Positions 10,207 through 16,645 of a stretch of 29,958 nt of DNA are shown in pieces. The position numbers were made by a program, and so were the translations under genes. How positions within the stretch are numbered: the stretch's first letter is position 1; each line of letters opens with the position of its first letter. The stretch is from Steroidobacteraceae bacterium (lineage in GTDB: Bacteria; Pseudomonadota; Gammaproteobacteria; Steroidobacterales; Steroidobacteraceae). Location of the stretch: positions 1-29,958 of the forward strand of contig DASYNV010000097.1 of the NCBI GenBank assembly GCA_036008365.1, read 5' to 3'. The notes under the pieces were generated by a model that was given only the letters and a program-made list of their open reading frames with translations, made no database searches and was not told where the DNA came from.

Positions 10207-10286
10207 CGCACTTCCTGGGTCCAAAAGTTGAGCGTATCAGAAGTCACAGGAGCACCGCCCCTTCTATCGGCAGCGGCCACGGGTCC

Positions 10287-10302
10287 TGCATGGACAGCGC
10301 CG
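10287..10302 (-). promoter_or_regulatory. Candidate sigma-54 promoter for the wza operon
   Basis: Minus strand reads CGGCGCTGTCCATGCA (GG-N10-GC spacing, ATGCA at -12), about 80 bp upstream of the wza ATG. Weaker match than the two central promoters. Confidence 0.4.
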
Positions 10303-10477
10303 CCAGGTGTTTGTTTTATCTTGCCCGACCTGTGCGTGGCGGCAACTGGCCGGACCGTCTCTTTGTCGCGACGAAGCTTGGCCGCGCTAGGGGGTTGGAT
10401 GGCGCGAACGCAGCCACAAACACGCGCCCGCGTAACGCGCCTTTCGCCCCGGTTGAGAGGCGACATAACGCGAAAGT

Positions 10478-10503
10478 GCCGCTGGCCGTTGCCGCTGGCC
10501 GTT
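10478..10503. repeat. 13-bp tandem direct repeat abutting the exosortase stop codon
   Basis: gccgctggccgtt at 10478-10490 and again at 10491-10503. Confidence 0.8.
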
Positions 10504-11965
10504 AGTGCAACGCTCCGCTGGCGGCGAAATCCCCAAGCGTGCGCCGCGCCGCTACGCAGTCGGGCCGGCACGCCGCCCGGAACGCGATGAGAGAGGCCGC
10601 CGGATGCGCGACCGTCGCGTTGAGCCCGTACCAGAACTGGGCCAGCAGCGGGTTGACAAACTCCCTGCCTGCACTTTGGTAGCGCGTCCAGATCACGAAG
10701 AGATCATGCGGATAGGCCCGATCGACCATCTCGCTTTCGCGAAACCTTCCTGCGGGCCCCGTCATCACAGCTTCCGAACGCAGCAGCAGCTGTCGACCGC
10801 CGAGTGAGTTGCCCGCAGCGAGAAGCTTCGCGTCCTGACGCTGCTCGAGGTAGGTGACCGAGAACAGCTCGACGGTTGGGCCGCCATCGGTGTAAGCCAG
10901 GCGCTGCTGCACCGCTGCGCCGGCAAAGCTCGGCTGCCAGGACGAATGTACGTCGACCGGCGCCGCCACCCACGGCGTGCGCGGATTGGCGTCCACCCTG
11001 GGTTTCGCGAGCGGCGCTTGCAGGCGCAGCGCGGCACTCACTGACGGGATCAGCACGAGGACGAGAGCGGCAACCGCGACGCGGCCAAGGTCCGTCCACA
11101 GGCGCGGCGATACGGCCGGCTGCATGGTGGCGGTTGCACCGGGCGCAGGGGCTTCGGGCCAGCGCCCGGTAATCCAGAAGAATGCGAACAATGCGACGCC
11201 GAACAACCCCCAGCCGAACCAGTAGTGGTTGCGCAGCAGCGAGCTGTGCATGTCGCTGAGATAGCCCGCTTCGATGACGCCGTATACCCGCACCCAGTTG
11301 GCGACCAGTGCGAGTACCGCCATGAGCGCCAGCTGCGCCAGGCGCACTTTCCAGGGATCGCGCCGCAGCTCGCCCTGCAGCGCCGCCACCGCGAGACCCA
11401 CGATCAGGTAGTGCAGCCCGCTGCAGCCTCCCTGGATCTCGAACGTACCGTTGGGCACCTGGATCAGATCGCCGGAAATGACGGCCTGCGGCCCGGTGAG
11501 ACTCAGAATGGAGCGCATCGCGCGCACCGTCAGTTCCTGCAGCGGCGCGGTCAGCTCCGACCACGACGGCTCTGCGAACAGGAAGAAAGCCGCGGGGAAG
11601 ACGAGCAGGCGCCCCACCGACCCTCCGAACGCCGCGGTCACAGCGAGCCAGAAGATCACGGGTGCGATCGTGATGTGCAGATCCTGGAAGCTCGCCCGGT
11701 AACACACCAGCCAGACGAGCACGGCGGCAGCGAGCGCGGCGAGCGCAACGGGCGACACCCGTGCCGGAGCGGCCTCGATTTCGCGTCGCGCGGCGATCAC
11801 CAGCACCACGCAGACCGCGACGATCAGCCAGCCGTGCGTGTAGGTGATGTTCGCGAAGTCCGTCCACTGCTCCCCAAGCACTCGCGCGCTCGGCCAGCAG
11901 ACCACCGCCACCAGCACAGCGAGGAGCAGGATCATCCACAGGCGCGGGAAGCGGCCCATCCGCAT
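10502..11965 (-). CDS. xrtA: Exosortase A (EpsH) with C-terminal EpsI domain
   Basis: Multi-TM N-terminus with YTHGWLI; catalytic triad candidates Cys (GGCSGLHYL), Arg (ANWVRVY) and His (RNHYWFGW); soluble C-terminal EpsI-like region. A PEP-CTERM substrate gene lies about 1 kb away. Confidence 0.92.
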   Translation of the reverse strand: MRMGRFPRLWMILLLAVLVAVVCWPSARVLGEQWTDFANITYTHGWLIVAVCVVLVIAARREIEAAPARVSPVALAALAAAVLVWLVCYRASFQDLHITIAPVIFWLAVTAAFGGSVGRLLVFPAAFFLFAEPSWSELTAPLQELTVRAMRSILSLTGPQAVISGDLIQVPNGTFEIQGGCSGLHYLIVGLAVAALQGELRRDPWKVRLAQLALMAVLALVANWVRVYGVIEAGYLSDMHSSLLRNHYWFGWGLFGVALFAFFWITGRWPEAPAPGATATMQPAVSPRLWTDLGRVAVAALVLVLIPSVSAALRLQAPLAKPRVDANPRTPWVAAPVDVHSSWQPSFAGAAVQQRLAYTDGGPTVELFSVTYLEQRQDAKLLAAGNSLGGRQLLLRSEAVMTGPAGRFRESEMVDRAYPHDLFVIWTRYQSAGREFVNPLLAQFWYGLNATVAHPAASLIAFRAACRPDCVAARRTLGDFAASGALH

Positions 11966-12031: not shown

Positions 12032-12415
12032 TCAGCTGATCGTCAGACTGACGATGTCAGACAGTGCGCTTTCTACCCCGGTGTTCGTAAAGGCACGGAT
12101 TGCGAAGTACCAGGTGCCCGTTGACAGACCGTCGACAACATAGGTCTGCATGCCGACACTGTTGACCTGTACGGTCTGCCTGAGCTCCGCCTCAGACACA
12201 CCGTAGTAAATGCGGTAGCCGGCCAGGTTGTTTAGCGGCGCACCGTTGGTATCGGTGGTCGGCGCCTCCCAGGACAGCGTCGCCGCATTGCTGGTCTGCG
12301 CACCGGTCGATGCGGGGCTCGCTGCGCCCACAGTGGCGTCACTCGACCCCTCATGGCAGCCTGCGAGCACCGCGGCCGCTACGAATAAAACCCACACCCG
12401 TTTCAGCGTTTTCAA
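12032..12415 (-). CDS. Small lipoprotein with a single fibronectin type III domain
   Basis: TTG at 12415 with a GGGAGG RBS; lipobox LAGC; FN3 pattern ATLSWEAP..GYRIYYG..TYVVDGLSTGTWYFAIRAF..GVES.LS; 127 aa. Confidence 0.82.
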   Translation of the reverse strand: MKTLKRVWVLFVAAAVLAGCHEGSSDATVGAASPASTGAQTSNAATLSWEAPTTDTNGAPLNNLAGYRIYYGVSEAELRQTVQVNSVGMQTYVVDGLSTGTWYFAIRAFTNTGVESALSDIVSLTIS

Positions 12416-12532
12416 GGCGCAAACCTCCCTCAGGCGCCCGCTCGAGAGCGGGCGTCTACAACACATCCCCAGAAGGAGCTGCACCGGGCGGGAAGCGAGA
12501 GAGCCGCGGCGGTACAGCGCAGAAGGGATCAG

Positions 12533-12548
12533 TGCAAAGGCTGTGCCG
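12533..12548 (-). promoter_or_regulatory. Sigma-54 (-24/-12) promoter driving the FN3 lipoprotein-xrtA arm
   Basis: Minus strand reads CGGCACAGCCTTTGCA, matching the TGGCACN5TTGCW consensus except at position 1. Confidence 0.8.
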
Positions 12549-12672
12549 CTACGGCTAAACGTTGGTTTGTCAGGAACTTACGCGCGCGGGCGACCCTGCC
12601 GCGGAAACCGGGCCTTAAGCTCGCGTCGCAGCAGCGCGACGGCACGAGCTTCAAGCCCGCTTTTTGAAAATA

Positions 12673-12685
12673 TAAATTATTGATT
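12673..12685 (-). promoter_or_regulatory. IHF binding site
   Basis: Minus strand AATCAATAATTTA is an exact WATCAAN4TTR match, inside the most AT-rich tract of the window. Confidence 0.72.
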
Positions 12686-12716
12686 TTTAAGAATAATACT
12701 TGGGTCGCCCTGCGCC

Positions 12717-12748
12717 GACACCGTACATAAGCTTAGACCTACAGTGTC
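12717..12748. promoter_or_regulatory. Dyad-symmetric candidate enhancer (bEBP site)
   Basis: GACACCGTA-N14-TACAGTGTC (8/9 inverted match), roughly midway between the two divergent sigma-54 promoters. Confidence 0.45.
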
Positions 12749-12826
12749 AATGGGTGATGGCCTTCACGTTTCGCGTCCCGAATATGTCGCATGAAGCGCT
12801 TGAGCGGGTTTCAGCTCTGTTAGGCT

Positions 12827-12842
12827 TGTGACCGATTTCACG
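12827..12842. promoter_or_regulatory. CRP/Clp-like binding site
   Basis: TGTGA-CCGATT-TCACG, one mismatch from TGTGA-N6-TCACA. Confidence 0.45.
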
Positions 12843-12887
12843 CCAACGGGGCTTACATAATTGGAGGTCCTGCGGGCGCGTCTGCAG

Positions 12888-12903
12888 CGGCAGACAGCTT
12901 GCA
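12888..12903 (+). promoter_or_regulatory. Sigma-54 (-24/-12) promoter driving the PEP-CTERM gene
   Basis: CGGCAGACAGCTTGCA (GG-N10-GC with TTGCA), about 100 bp upstream of the ATG. Confidence 0.72.
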
Positions 12904-13004
12904 AGGCATTGAGGAAAGCGACGAGCATGTGGCGGCGGCACGGCGTTTTGTGATCAGCCGGTCGGCCCGCGATGGCTAAGGATCGGTCATTGGAGGACTC
13001 TGCG

Positions 13005-13271
13005 ATGAAGAAGATGAAGTTGATCGCTGGCATAGTCAGCGTCGCGGCGGTGGGGACCGTGCTGTGGAGCATGCCTGCCATCGCGGAAACGGGTGACTCG
13101 GGCCGCGAGGCTCGCGACAAGTGGCCGGGCGCGGACAACTATGCGCCCCGCGAGACCAGCACCGCGTCGACCGCTACGGGTCTGCCTGAGCCGGGCACAC
13201 TGGCGCTGTTGGCGCTGGGCCTCGGCGGCCTCGGCGGTGCGGCACTGCGCCGCAGACGCGCTAAAGCCTGA
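13005..13271 (+). CDS. Minimal PEP-CTERM sorting-domain protein (exosortase substrate)
   Basis: GGAGG RBS 8 nt before ATG 13005; signal peptide ending MPAIA; C-terminal LPEPGTLALLALGLGGLGGAALRRRRAKA (PEP motif, TM helix, Arg cluster); 88 aa. Confidence 0.92.
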   Translation: MKKMKLIAGIVSVAAVGTVLWSMPAIAETGDSGREARDKWPGADNYAPRETSTASTATGLPEPGTLALLALGLGGLGGAALRRRRAKA

Positions 13272-13330: not shown

Positions 13331-13509
13331 CGACGGGTACGGCGCACTGTTCCCCCGCGTAAGCGTGGGGTGGCAGCATGGATTTTCAGCACGGAAGCTA
13401 TGATCGGACTGCGGGGTACGCGCGCTTGCCACAGATCTCACATTCTCGCGCCTATCCTGCAGACGCGCTCCCCTACGTCCCGCGGCCGGTAAGTCTCAAT
13501 GTCAGCACC

Positions 13510-14409
13510 GTGGCGGCCCATAGCGCGCGGCCGATCAATGCCTTTACCGTGGATGTCGAAGACTACTTTCACGTCGAGGCATTGAGCTCGGTCATCAGCC
13601 GCGAGAGCTGGTCGACACGCGAATACCGGGTTGAAGCCAACACCGAGCGGTTGCTCTGGGTCCTGGCCGAGCATGGCGTCGCCGGCACTTTCTTCGTCCT
13701 CGGCTGGGTCGCGGAGCGCTCTCCGGCGCTCGTGCGCCGCATCGCCGCGGCCGGTCATGAGATCGCCTGCCACGGGTATGCGCACCAGCTCGTTTATCAG
13801 CAGGCGCCGCAGGTGTTCCGGCAGGAGACGGTGCGCGCCAAGAGCTGTCTCGAGGACCTGATCGGGGAAGCGGTGCTCGGCTACCGCGCGGCGAGCTTCT
13901 CCGTGACCAAAGCTTCCCTCTGGGCGCTCGATGTGCTGATCGACCTTGGCTTCCGCTTCGACTCGTCGGTGTTCCCGATCCGCCACGACATCTACGGGCT
14001 GCCGGGCGCCTCACCCGAGCCCCATCGCATCGCCGCCCCTTCCGGGCGCACGCTCATCGAGTTTCCGATGTCCGCGGCGAGTTTCCTGGGAGCGCCGGTA
14101 CCGGTATCGGGCGGCGGCTACTTCCGCATACTGCCCTATTGGCTCACCCGCGCGGGCCTGAAGCAGATCAACGAGCAGCGCCAGCGCCCCTTCACGTTCT
14201 ACATGCATCCGTGGGAGCTCGACCCTGGACAGCCGCATGTGTCCGGCGTCAGCTGGTTCTCACGCTTCCGGCACTATACGAATCTCGAGCGCTGCGAGAG
14301 CCGCCTGCACCGGCTGCTCGGCGAGTTCGCGTTCACCTCCATGCGTGAGGCGCTGCGCCTGCGCGGCCTCGCGGCTGACGTCACCGGCGCCGCAACCGCG
14401 CTGCACTGA
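13510..14409 (+). CDS. CE4/NodB polysaccharide deacetylase, XrtA-system type
   Basis: NAFTVDVEDYFHV, HEIACHGYAH, GYRAASFS and FYMHPWE motifs. Start uncertain: GTG 13510 chosen, ORF open from ATG 13378. Confidence 0.9.
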   Translation: MAAHSARPINAFTVDVEDYFHVEALSSVISRESWSTREYRVEANTERLLWVLAEHGVAGTFFVLGWVAERSPALVRRIAAAGHEIACHGYAHQLVYQQAPQVFRQETVRAKSCLEDLIGEAVLGYRAASFSVTKASLWALDVLIDLGFRFDSSVFPIRHDIYGLPGASPEPHRIAAPSGRTLIEFPMSAASFLGAPVPVSGGGYFRILPYWLTRAGLKQINEQRQRPFTFYMHPWELDPGQPHVSGVSWFSRFRHYTNLERCESRLHRLLGEFAFTSMREALRLRGLAADVTGAATALH

Positions 14410-15786
14410 TCAGGCGGCCACGGCTCGCGACTGTGAGCCCTCGTGCGCACGGGGCGGCAGCAGCACGGTCACCGCGAGACCTCCGCCTTCGAGATTGCGC
14501 GCGCTGATGCTGCCGCCGTGCAGCGCCACCGCCCGTGCGGCGATGGCAAGGCCGAGCCCCTCGCCACCCGCGCTGCGATGCTCGCGCGCTACGTCTGCCC
14601 GATAGAACGGCTCGAAGATGAGCGCCAGATCCTTCTCCGGCACGCCCGGTCCCTGGTCACGCACCGCGACCTCAACAGGAGCGCCGTCCGCGCCCTTCTG
14701 GTGCGCGCTCACCGCCACCACGGCGCCCGCGGGACTGTAGCGCACGGCGTTACGGATCACGTTCTCGAATGCGCTGCGCAGCACCTCGGGGTCGCCCGAC
14801 ACCACGAGCTTGCCCTGCGCCTGCACGCTCACCAGGCAGCCGCGGGCGTCCGCCTCGATGGCGACGTCGGCGGCGATGTTCCGCAGCAGCTCGCCCACGT
14901 CGATGGTGAGGTGCTCGAGTGCGGCCGCGGGCCGCTCGAGCCGCACCAGCTTGAGCGTGCGCGCGATGAGCTGCTCGAGGCGGTCGGCTTCGCAGGCGAT
15001 GCGGGCGAGGTGGCGCTCGGCGCCGGTCTCATCGCGCCGCGCGAGCGACAGCGCGAGCTGCAGTCGCGCGAGCGGCGAGCGCAGCTCGTGCGACACGTCC
15101 CGCAGCAGCTGCTGCTTCGCCTCGAGGAGTTGCCGCAGGCGCTCCGCCATCGCGTCGAGGTCCGCCGCAAGCAGACCCAGGTCGTCGTGCCGCTGGCGCA
15201 GCGCGGGCAGCACGCGCACGTTCAGGTCGCCCGCCGCCATCCGCCGGGTCGCAACGCGCAGTCGGTCCACCGGCGCAGCGAGGTAGCGCGCGAGCACCAG
15301 GCACACCGCCGCGCTCACCCCGAGCGCGATGACCAGTATCGACAGCGGCACGCCGGGCAGCTCGAGCTCGCCAAACAGGCGCGGGCTGTCGCGTACCGGG
15401 CCGATGACCACGTGGTAGGTATTGCCCTCCGGCGCAACCAGCACCAGCGCGCCGCCGATCGGCGAGATCGCATCCCCGGTGGCGACAGCGGCGCCGGCGC
15501 TGAGGGGCGGTGGCAATGGCCGGCCAAGCATCTCCCGGCCGTCCGGCTCGATGACGTAGGTGCGCCCGAACGGCTCGCCGGCGAGCGATTGCAGCCAGTC
15601 CTTCAGCGCGGGCGGGCCGCCGGTCTCGAACGCGCGCGCCGCCTGCGCATACAGTTGGCCGCGCTGCACCCAGGGACGATCGGTGCGATGCGCGGTGGCA
15701 TTGACCGCCACCGTCACCGTGCCCACCAGGATCAGCGCCAGTGCCGCCCAGAACGCGAGGAAAATGCGCCAGTAGAGCGAGTGCAT
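14410..15786 (-). CDS. CpxA-like membrane sensor histidine kinase (HAMP-HisKA-HATPase)
   Basis: Two TMs; H-box DVSHELRSPLARL; N-box FENVIRNAVRY; G1 DQGPGV; F-box IFEPFYR; G2 GEGLGLAI. ATG at 15786. Confidence 0.93.
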   Translation of the reverse strand: MHSLYWRIFLAFWAALALILVGTVTVAVNATAHRTDRPWVQRGQLYAQAARAFETGGPPALKDWLQSLAGEPFGRTYVIEPDGREMLGRPLPPPLSAGAAVATGDAISPIGGALVLVAPEGNTYHVVIGPVRDSPRLFGELELPGVPLSILVIALGVSAAVCLVLARYLAAPVDRLRVATRRMAAGDLNVRVLPALRQRHDDLGLLAADLDAMAERLRQLLEAKQQLLRDVSHELRSPLARLQLALSLARRDETGAERHLARIACEADRLEQLIARTLKLVRLERPAAALEHLTIDVGELLRNIAADVAIEADARGCLVSVQAQGKLVVSGDPEVLRSAFENVIRNAVRYSPAGAVVAVSAHQKGADGAPVEVAVRDQGPGVPEKDLALIFEPFYRADVAREHRSAGGEGLGLAIAARAVALHGGSISARNLEGGGLAVTVLLPPRAHEGSQSRAVAA

Positions 15787-15787
15787 G

Positions 15788-16531
15788 TCAGGCCCCGTGC
15801 GGGGCTGCCGGGGTGCGCGCGGCATTCAGGGTGAGCGCGTAGCCCGAGCCGCGCACGCTCTGCACGTTGACGCGGTCGGTGTAGCGCACCATCTTGCGGC
15901 GCAGGTTCGACACATGGGTATCGAGGCTGCGGTCGGTCGGCAGCAGCCGACGCCCCAGGGCCTGCGTCATGAGGTCATCGCGCGTCACCGTGCGGGTGTC
16001 CGCGCGCACCAGCAGCTCGAGGATGCGCAGCTCCGCCGAAGTGAGCTCGAGATCGTGCTCGCCGACCTCGGCGCGGCGCGCCCGCAGATCGAGCCGCAGC
16101 GGTCCCCATACGATGAGCCCCGCGGGGGCGGCGGTCTCGCCCGGCGTCCGCCGCAGCACCGCGCGGATGCGCGCCACCAGCTCGCGGGGACTGAAGGGCT
16201 TGGCGAGATAATCGTCCGCGCCCATCTCGAGACCGACGACGCGGTCGACCTCCTCGCCGCGCGCGGTGAGCATGATCACCGGCACGCGGCTCACCGCACG
16301 GATGCGCCGCAGCACCTCGAATCCGGACAGCTCGGGCAGCATCACATCCAGCACCACCAGGTCGAACGGCTGGCGCGCGAGCTGCTCGAGGCCAGCAGGA
16401 CCGGTGCCGGCGGTGTGGGTCGCGAACCCCTCCGGGGTGAGGTACTCGGCCAGCATGGCGCACAGCTCCTGGTCATCATCGATGATCAGCAACAGTGGCT
16501 TCGCATCGCCGGCGGTCTCGCGCCCTTCCAT
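15788..16531 (-). CDS. OmpR/CpxR-family response regulator
   Basis: LLIIDDD, VVLDVMLP (phospho-Asp), MLTARG, GADDYLAKPF; winged-helix RSLDTHVSNLRRK and VRGSGY. ATG at 16531. Confidence 0.95.
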   Translation of the reverse strand: MEGRETAGDAKPLLLIIDDDQELCAMLAEYLTPEGFATHTAGTGPAGLEQLARQPFDLVVLDVMLPELSGFEVLRRIRAVSRVPVIMLTARGEEVDRVVGLEMGADDYLAKPFSPRELVARIRAVLRRTPGETAAPAGLIVWGPLRLDLRARRAEVGEHDLELTSAELRILELLVRADTRTVTRDDLMTQALGRRLLPTDRSLDTHVSNLRRKMVRYTDRVNVQSVRGSGYALTLNAARTPAAPHGA

Positions 16532-16590
16532 GAGTGCAGACGATACACGCTCCCGGCCCGCGCCGGTTTCACCGCCGCCCAAACGCAGAC

Positions 16591-16608
16591 TTCTTTGCAT
16601 TTCTTTGC
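16591..16608 (-). promoter_or_regulatory. CpxR-box-like tandem repeat upstream of the response regulator
   Basis: Minus strand GCAAAGAA-AT-GCAAAGAA, i.e. GCAAA-N5-GCAAA with a 10-bp period, resembling the CpxR consensus GTAAA-N5-GTAAA. Confidence 0.55.
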
Positions 16609-16645
16609 CGGCGCGCAGCGTGCGCACGGGGCGCGGCGTGCGGAC

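Follow-up and report, generated by a model that had tools for sequence, protein, structure and literature searches.

How are an exosortase operon and a PEP-CTERM substrate gene controlled when they are transcribed away from each other out of one intergenic region? The regulation of exosortase systems is mostly a matter of prediction. To our knowledge a site for the activator PrsR has never been footprinted, and in the literature searched we found no description of how the exosortase gene itself is controlled. We examined such a region on contig DASYNV010000097.1 (C97) of the Steroidobacteraceae bacterium assembly GCA_036008365.1, which comprises 2.3 Mb in 431 contigs, is 85% complete and has a GC content of 66%; the whole 29,958-bp contig is called the window here. 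The gap studied (12416-13004, about 590 bp) lies between an exosortase operon on the minus strand and a small PEP-CTERM gene on the plus strand. We consider it probable that this gap serves an XrtA-type exosortase module of soil Steroidobacteraceae-like Gammaproteobacteria as a conserved region of two-way control, with an exosortase arm that would depend on an unchanged sigma-54 promoter and a substrate arm whose ancestral sigma-54 promoter would have given way to another start in the lineage of the window.

Related loci were collected in a search to which a metagenome scan contributed 80 soil contigs. It yielded 41 loci with a common layout, consisting of the PEP-CTERM gene, a gap of about 590 bp, the lipoprotein gene and the exosortase gene; 38 of these were unique and 27 were non-redundant, with less than 93% mutual identity. 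Elements were counted over the 38 unique loci, and spacings were measured on the 27 non-redundant ones. One locus, L076, comes from an independent assembly and encodes an exosortase 94% identical to that of the window; over the plus-arm stretch 12820-13010 its sequence does not differ from that of the window, and the motifs matched in the gap as a whole are also the same. The nearest exosortase matches in metagenome-assembled Steroidobacteraceae genomes with the same gene order showed 61-62% protein identity. A first-pass annotation, made from the letters of the window, had proposed that the gap is a divergent control region of exosortase and substrate, and the region was found to be conserved as such.

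On the exosortase side, the sigma-54 motif CGGCACAGCCTTTGCA was found at the same place in all 38 unique loci. Scores as high as this one (Table 1) are uncommon in the genome, where 27 sigma-54-like sites of at least 15 bits were counted in 2.3 Mb, 11 of them intergenic. It is also the one sigma-54-like site of at least 12 bits in the assembly that has two GTC-N10-GAC dyads 40-260 bp upstream. The start predicted from the motif lies at about 12522. In the RNA data, which are assembled contigs from four soil metatranscriptomes containing the sequence, the minus-arm contigs (depth 2-4) stop at 12500 and 12511, as would fit a sigma-54 start near 12522. Being conserved and scoring above chance, the exosortase-side promoter that the first-pass annotation had placed here is well supported; from the motif we infer that it is sigma-54-dependent, and it would drive the genes of the FN3 lipoprotein and the exosortase leftward. 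The TTG start codon of the lipoprotein gene at 12415 and its Shine-Dalgarno sequence GGGAGG at 12424-12429 are both conserved in relatives. Just 5' of this ribosome site, the leader of the exosortase arm contains a 12-bp inverted repeat at 12432-12457 (92% complementary, 2-nt loop), and judged by eye only, the relatives seem to have a hairpin of other sequence at this position.

The centre of the gap holds an IHF (integration host factor) site flanked by two dyads, and these dyads are the strongest conserved blocks of the gap. Exact matches to the IHF consensus occur twice in the 30-kb window, compared with 0.07 expected from shuffled sequences. Among the loci, the site in the gap is exact in 21 of 38 and near-exact in most others, and its TTGAT core lies 54-57 bp from dyad 1 in 22 of 23; the mid-region IHF site reported earlier is thus above chance and conserved in position. 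Dyads 1 and 2 are separated by 76-81 bp. The centre of dyad 1 is located about 110 bp upstream of the minus start, at a distance from the -24 GG that is 85-89 bp in 15 loci, 95-97 bp in 10 and 108-109 bp in 2. From lineage to lineage the distance thus changes by about 10 bp, or roughly one helical turn, at a time, as would be expected if a protein bound to the dyad must face the polymerase. A sigma-54 activator bound at dyads 1 and 2 would switch the exosortase promoter on, and IHF would bend the DNA between the two dyads. Besides this central module of IHF site and dyads, a separate conserved element lies about 110 bp upstream of each promoter. The core GTC-N10-GAC is found a third time at 12880, 54-56 bp ahead of the proximal sigma-54 motif of the plus arm, and in the three copies (12625, 12704 and 12880) an outer T and A are only partly present. 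A further conserved block, TTTCA-N4-GTTA, shares 7 of 9 positions with an IHF site and might be read as one.

The first-pass annotation had assigned the role of shared enhancer to a different dyad, at 12717-12748, and this could not be upheld. By our estimate, chance alone would give about two pairs of arms matching this well in 590 bp; in the clade, conservation is limited to the outer GACA/GTC letters, and a repeat search with 6-nt seeds did not list the pair. The CGGCACAGCCTTTGCA and CGGCAGACAGCTTGCA motifs, the IHF consensus and the arms of this dyad are all present where they had been placed. By score alone, the minus-strand site and the IHF site are above chance, and the plus-strand site CGGCAGACAGCTTGCA and the dyad at 12717-12748 are not.

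The substrate arm follows a known scheme. According to the text of Haft et al. 2006, most proteobacterial PEP-CTERM genes are preceded by a box, a spacer and a sigma-54 motif; the parts given there are a 17-nt motif 1 that ends in TTTACA and is predicted to be the PrsR site, about 63 nt of spacer, the sigma-54 motif and about 71 nt to the start codon, with motif 1 lying 32-92 nt upstream of the sigma-54 motif (PMC1569441). The clade consensus of the box in the gap, CGTCGnnnGnnnTTACA, fits this text description of motif 1. A predicted PrsR sequence was therefore already published in 2006, and its counterpart here, at 12841-12857, is a different sequence from the dyad at 12717-12748. In 23 of 23 loci the TTACA end of the box is followed after 74-78 nt by a sigma-54 motif. 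This proximal motif is intact in 33 of the 38 loci, where it scores 13-15.8 bits and mostly ends 55-63 nt before the ATG. The ancestral substrate arm would thus have consisted of the box and, about 76 nt later, a sigma-54 promoter at 12936-12951. The box follows a TGTGA-N6-TCAC element, which stands directly ahead of it; this is also the case ahead of other PEP-CTERM genes of the relatives, and the same composite precedes the paralogous small PEP-CTERM genes. For this cross-gene comparison the PEP-CTERM genes of four relatives were used, as this genome yields one only, and a second was not detected in the rest of it.

In the lineage of the window, the substrate arm has changed. The intact proximal motif is missing in the window and in L076, L028, L121 and L131. 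Its remnant in the window is GGCAC, six letters, TTTGT, and about ten bases downstream of it are deleted relative to the other loci. The loss of the -12 GC is not an assembly error, because the independently assembled L076 is identical over 12820-13010. The left half of the box is degenerate in the window (CGCCAA), with CTTACA retained. The outward-facing pair of sigma-54 promoters proposed in the first pass thus exists on both arms in 33 of 38 relatives, but the plus-strand site chosen for the window, at 12888-12903, is not the conserved one. Besides the window, only L076, L018 and L081 have that site (4 of 38 loci), which lies 101 nt from the ATG. Genome-wide, 206 sites score at least 12 bits, or about one in every 11 kb of each strand, with no higher density between genes than inside them.

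The RNA contigs of the plus arm are strain-specific, with 0-1 mismatches over non-conserved DNA. A 130-nt contig of run X14 covers 12868-12997 at a depth of 109 and abuts an Illumina adapter at 12868, a contig of run X9 covers 12879-12995 at a depth of 336, and contig depth is zero over 12548-12867. Downstream, coverage runs through the PEP-CTERM gene into the deacetylase gene at a depth of 70-98, with one contig extending from 12968 to past 13500. The ends at 12868 and 12879 fit neither of the sigma-54-like motifs. They lie 9-20 nt upstream of the motif at 12888-12903, and the one at 12868 is about 46 nt upstream of the start that the first pass had predicted near 12915, so this prediction would fail for the plus arm if 12868 is a true start. 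The motif occupies about +21 to +36 of the observed RNA and is located within the 5' leader, since the RNA begins upstream at about 12868. The position of the CATAAT hexamer (Table 1) fits a sigma-70-type start at about 12868. In this lineage, the abundant transcript would begin there, seven bases after the lineage-specific CATAAT, from a sigma-70-type promoter. The minus-arm RNA is 25-300 times less abundant than the plus-arm RNA. The arm without its sigma-54 promoter, still among the most abundant soil RNAs of the organism, offers a natural experiment, and the case also cautions that a good-looking -24/-12 match in a genome of this GC content can fall inside a transcript.

Soil metatranscriptomes contain very abundant mRNA of the 88-aa PEP-CTERM protein, with strain contigs reaching a depth of about 340. 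In two RNA runs the contig specific to the leader has 1.6-3.4 times the depth of the coding contig. The leader at 12957-12999 is nearly invariant in the clade (GGCTAnGGATnGGTCATTGGAGG) and contains two GGA motifs resembling a CsrA/RsmA target; its conserved 31-mers are common to many strains in the RNA runs. A search of 12300-13100 against Rfam returned only an insignificant SAH match (E = 0.95), the leader fold had a z-score of -0.57, and RNAalifold found no conserved hairpin over 12858-12912. As no conserved leader structure was found, the conservation of the GTCT...AGAC and TTGCAAG sequences more likely acts at the DNA level.

We also searched for the genes of candidate activators. In this 85%-complete genome, neither PrsR (TIGR02915, best score 345 bits against a cut-off of 502.6) nor PrsK (TIGR02916, best score 88 bits against a cut-off of 300) was found; a C-terminal fragment of rpoN is present at a contig end. 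In four relatives PrsR exceeds the family cut-off (about 595 bits), and its gene shares a contig with the exosortase gene at a distance of 25-33 kb. The association with PrsR that the first-pass annotation had drawn from other PEP-CTERM systems is thus seen in the same extended locus of these relatives.

Several points count against a control region of this kind as read in the window. The sigma-54 weight matrix is an approximate one based on published frequencies. RNA contigs show presence and not absence, which leaves room for a weaker internal start near 12914, and 12868 could be a processing site rather than a true start. The CATAAT hexamer is not accompanied by a good -35 hexamer, and strict scans of the region for sigma-70 promoters and terminators returned none. 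An RNA contig joined to the leader of a relative spans the intact sigma-54 motif of that strain, so the upstream start may be clade-wide instead of new in this lineage, although the contig is possibly chimeric. Finally, PrsR may merely be unassembled, because the genome is 85% complete.

Table 1 Features of the gap at 12416-13004 and of the genes around it (positions in the window).
Feature	Position	Strand	Basis
Exosortase, XrtA-like, with C-terminal EpsI domain	10505-11965	-	TIGR03109 195.8 bits (cut-off 208); TIGR02602 above cut-off; TIGR02914 weak
127-aa FN3-domain lipoprotein, first gene of the exosortase operon	12035-12415	-	Pfam fn3; LAGC lipobox read from the sequence
Putative sigma-54 promoter of the lipoprotein-exosortase operon	12533-12548	-	CGGCACAGCCTTTGCA, GG-N10-GC; 15.1 bits
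Conserved TTTCA-N4-GTTA block between dyad 1 and the minus promoter	12566-12580		Conservation profile, 27 loci
Dyad 1, GTCGC-N6-GCGAC (core GTC-N10-GAC)	12625-12640		38/38 loci, counted with a relaxed pattern
Predicted IHF site in an AT-rich island	12673-12685	-	Exact match to WATCAANNNNTTR
Dyad 2, GTCGC-N7-CGAC(A)	12704-12719		38/38 loci, counted with a relaxed pattern
Dyad of the first-pass annotation	12717-12748		Arms GACACCGTA and TACAGTGTC, 8/9 complementary
TGTGA-N6-TCACG element, CRP/Clp-site-like	12827-12842	+	Conserved in the clade
PEP-CTERM box, counterpart of motif 1	12841-12857	+	Clade consensus CGTCGnnnGnnnTTACA; text of PMC1569441
CATAAT hexamer	12856-12861	+	-12 to -7 relative to 12868; specific to the lineage of the window
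Third dyad, GTCT-N8-AGAC	12880-12895		Most loci; overlaps the -24 element of the site at 12888-12903
Sigma-54-like site of the first-pass annotation	12888-12903	+	CGGCAGACAGCTTGCA, GG-N10-GC; 12.6 bits
Remnant of the putative ancestral proximal sigma-54 promoter	12936-12951	+	GGCAC kept, -12 GC lost
5' leader of the PEP-CTERM gene with Shine-Dalgarno sequence	12957-12999	+	Strongly conserved
88-aa PEP-CTERM protein	13005-13271	+	TIGR02595 matches
XrtA-system polysaccharide deacetylase	13378-14409	+	TIGR03006 383.7 bits

To place the locus among known systems, we compared it with described sigma-54-controlled regions. The closest in its genes is the PrsK/PrsR/PrsT system of Haft et al. 2006. 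As in the text of that paper, a single PEP-CTERM gene has a large non-coding region ahead of it, in which a box of 17 nt with TTACA at its end comes first, then a sigma-54 -24/-12 motif, then about 57 nt of leader, and PrsR is found in the locus of the relatives. Unlike in that system, a divergent exosortase operon with a sigma-54 promoter of its own uses the same region, the centre contains GTC-N10-GAC dyads and an IHF site, and the spacing between box and promoter is 74-78 nt compared with the mean of 63 nt given in the published text; in the window, moreover, the GC of the promoter is lost, the box is degenerate and PrsR was not found. The pepA gene of Aquincola tertiaricarbonis is, like the gene studied here, a PEP-CTERM substrate gene with a sigma-54 promoter. 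It is RpoN-dependent, its start was mapped to the sigma-54 promoter, and the enhancer predicted in 2006 lies upstream (PMC9850573), whereas the RNA ends observed here are upstream of both sigma-54-like motifs. The orp1/orp2 genes of Desulfovibrio vulgaris have divergent sigma-54 promoters with functional IHF sites between them (PMC3897727), and their activator is OrpR (PMC8359166). Outward sigma-54 promoters in one intergenic region are likewise seen in 33 of 38 relatives, and in the window the minus promoter alone is intact and conserved; the predicted IHF site between the arms is conserved in position. Unlike at orp, the genes and the activator are unrelated, the IHF site is predicted from sequence only, and one arm has decayed in this lineage. 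With its 38 sequences, an invariant sigma-54 promoter, dyads whose distances change by helical turns, and an IHF site, the locus is a compact object for testing.

Which activator would act at the dyads? PrsR and a GlrR-like protein are alternatives here. One possibility, which we take seriously although it is unlikely, is that the GlrR-like activator, whose gene is on contig C103, binds the dyads, with PrsR acting only at the TTACA box. In Enterobacteriaceae, as shown for Escherichia coli, GlrR (QseF) binds three TGTC-N10-GACA dyads more than 100 bp upstream of glmY's sigma-54 promoter, IHF-like sites adjoin them, and in some genera the locus has a CATAAT sigma-70 -10 element (PMC3045617). The gap resembles glmY in its three GTC-N10-GAC-type dyads, sigma-54 promoter, IHF site and CATAAT; it differs in that its target is an exosortase operon and not a small RNA, and in that its dyads mostly lack the outer T and A of the GlrR box. 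Over its full length, the C103 protein scores 585 bits against the GlrR model NF011695, compared with 297 bits for the PrsR of a relative, but this is below the family cut-off of 763. It is 83-84% identical to the product of a gene located 0.1-1.3 kb from PrsR in relatives. Both the minus promoter and the dyads have stayed intact in this genome, in which PrsR was not found, and a loss of PrsR would explain why the box and the proximal promoter have decayed but the dyads and the exosortase promoter have not. A GTC-N10-GAC dyad together with the box also precedes two other PEP-CTERM genes in a PrsR-bearing relative, which fits PrsR equally well. Moreover, the GlrR-like gene belongs to the core of the family (128 of 151 genomes) and the exosortase module is rare, so the two show no specific co-occurrence.

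A bolder form of this proposal combines both arms. In it, the PEP-CTERM gene would have escaped PrsR/sigma-54 control, as marked by the lost GC, the decayed box, the missing PrsR and the new CATAAT start, from which very high expression in soil would come, and the exosortase operon would be under the phased dyads, bound by the GlrR-like activator. We regard it as speculative and somewhat less likely than the binding of the dyads by the GlrR-like protein taken by itself. If true, it would reveal a second, so far undescribed class of activator in PEP-CTERM systems. A clean deletion of prsR beside the GlrR-like gene was considered as well, and no synteny was found to show it. The histidine kinase and GlrR-like sigma-54 activator genes on C103 (14785-18225; G000, L002) are located among sugar-epimerase and asparagine-synthase-like genes. 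Across Steroidobacteraceae the activator is 83-92% identical, and its gene is usually 15-95 kb from the XrtA exosortase gene.

A lower probability is given to two promoters for the PEP-CTERM gene, namely a constitutive one at about 12868 and an inducible sigma-54 start at about 12914 that would use the 12888-12903 site after the decay of the proximal motif. The site is a fair sigma-54 match, and an internal start is compatible with contig-based RNA data. L018 and L081 have both the distal and the proximal motif, which implies that the distal one predates the loss. Its TTGCAAG part is nearly invariant in the clade, but this is not explained by a promoter role, because TTGCAAG is kept even where the -24 GG is missing and reads TTTCAAG, without the GC, in one sub-clade. 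The box ends just 30 nt upstream of the motif, below the spacing of 32-92 nt reported in the text of Haft et al. 2006 (PMC1569441), and PrsR was not found in this genome.

It is more doubtful again that the gap is conserved largely for regulators other than those of sigma-54, either a CRP/Clp-type protein at the TGTGA-N6-TCACG element or the OmpR-type system encoded at 14413-16627, with sigma-54 in a minor role. A TGTGA-N6-TCAC(A/G) sequence is conserved both at 12827-12842 and ahead of the export operon, the genes of a histidine kinase and an OmpR-type regulator are syntenic in relatives, and the soil RNA starts upstream of both sigma-54-like motifs of the plus arm. However, all 38 loci share an invariant minus sigma-54 motif that is accompanied by phased dyads. 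CRP-family activators typically bind at -41.5 or -61.5; the centre of the TGTGA element is 33.5 bp from the RNA end.

Least probable is the first-pass model, in which one enhancer at the 12717-12748 dyad, taken as the PrsR site, fires both outward promoters (12533-12548 and 12888-12903) by IHF looping: both motifs have the form GG-N10-GC, the IHF site is exact and conserved and the plus motif is shared by L018 and L081, but that motif is absent from 34 of 38 loci and of a score common in the genome, the RNA starts upstream of it, the dyad is at chance level and not conserved, and the published predicted PrsR site lies elsewhere (12841-12857), in a genome in which PrsR was not found.

The assignment of contig C97 to this assembly was examined. 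This exosortase was found in none of the 24 genomes of the same genus. A second gene of the contig (25269-26906) likewise had matches of only 35% in the same genus compared with 75% in a Steroidobacteraceae-like genome. The tetranucleotide composition of C97 is unremarkable (rank 14 of 77) and does not point to mis-binning, and another contig of the assembly carries a gene 83-92% identical to Steroidobacteraceae genes. We treated C97 as part of the genome, with an exosortase module that is patchily distributed or recently acquired.

Genes and gaps further out complete the description of the module. The best sigma-54-like match in the window, TGGCACGTCAAATGCT at 1037-1052 on the minus strand (16.1 bits), lies within a full-length GT4 glycosyltransferase gene and was rejected as a promoter, being for that reason probably due to chance. 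To the left of the exosortase gene, past a second gap at 10225-10501, are the export, chain-length and tyrosine-kinase genes of the XrtA system. This second gap, between the exosortase gene and the export gene, is strongly conserved too, in three relatives. It contains a TGTGAC-N6-TCACA-like element (TGTGGC...TCGCG in the window), and a CGTCGCGACAAAGAGACG block with a dyad at 10357-10372, and no sigma-54 motif of at least 8 bits was found in it ahead of the export gene. One CRP/Clp-type regulator may act both there and at the PEP-CTERM gene. On the other side, adjoining the deacetylase gene, the genes of a HAMP histidine kinase and an OmpR-type response regulator occupy 14413-16627 on the minus strand; the kinase has the same position and a nearly identical N-terminus in three relatives. 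Three relatives, L066, L067 and L071 (genomes G070, G043 and G041), have a second, paralogous divergent pair of a small PEP-CTERM gene and an exosortase gene about 35-40 kb away. On the exosortase side of this pair no sigma-54 motif was seen; on its substrate side are the TGTGA element, the PEP-CTERM box and, in L067 and L071, a sigma-54 motif 48 nt before the start.

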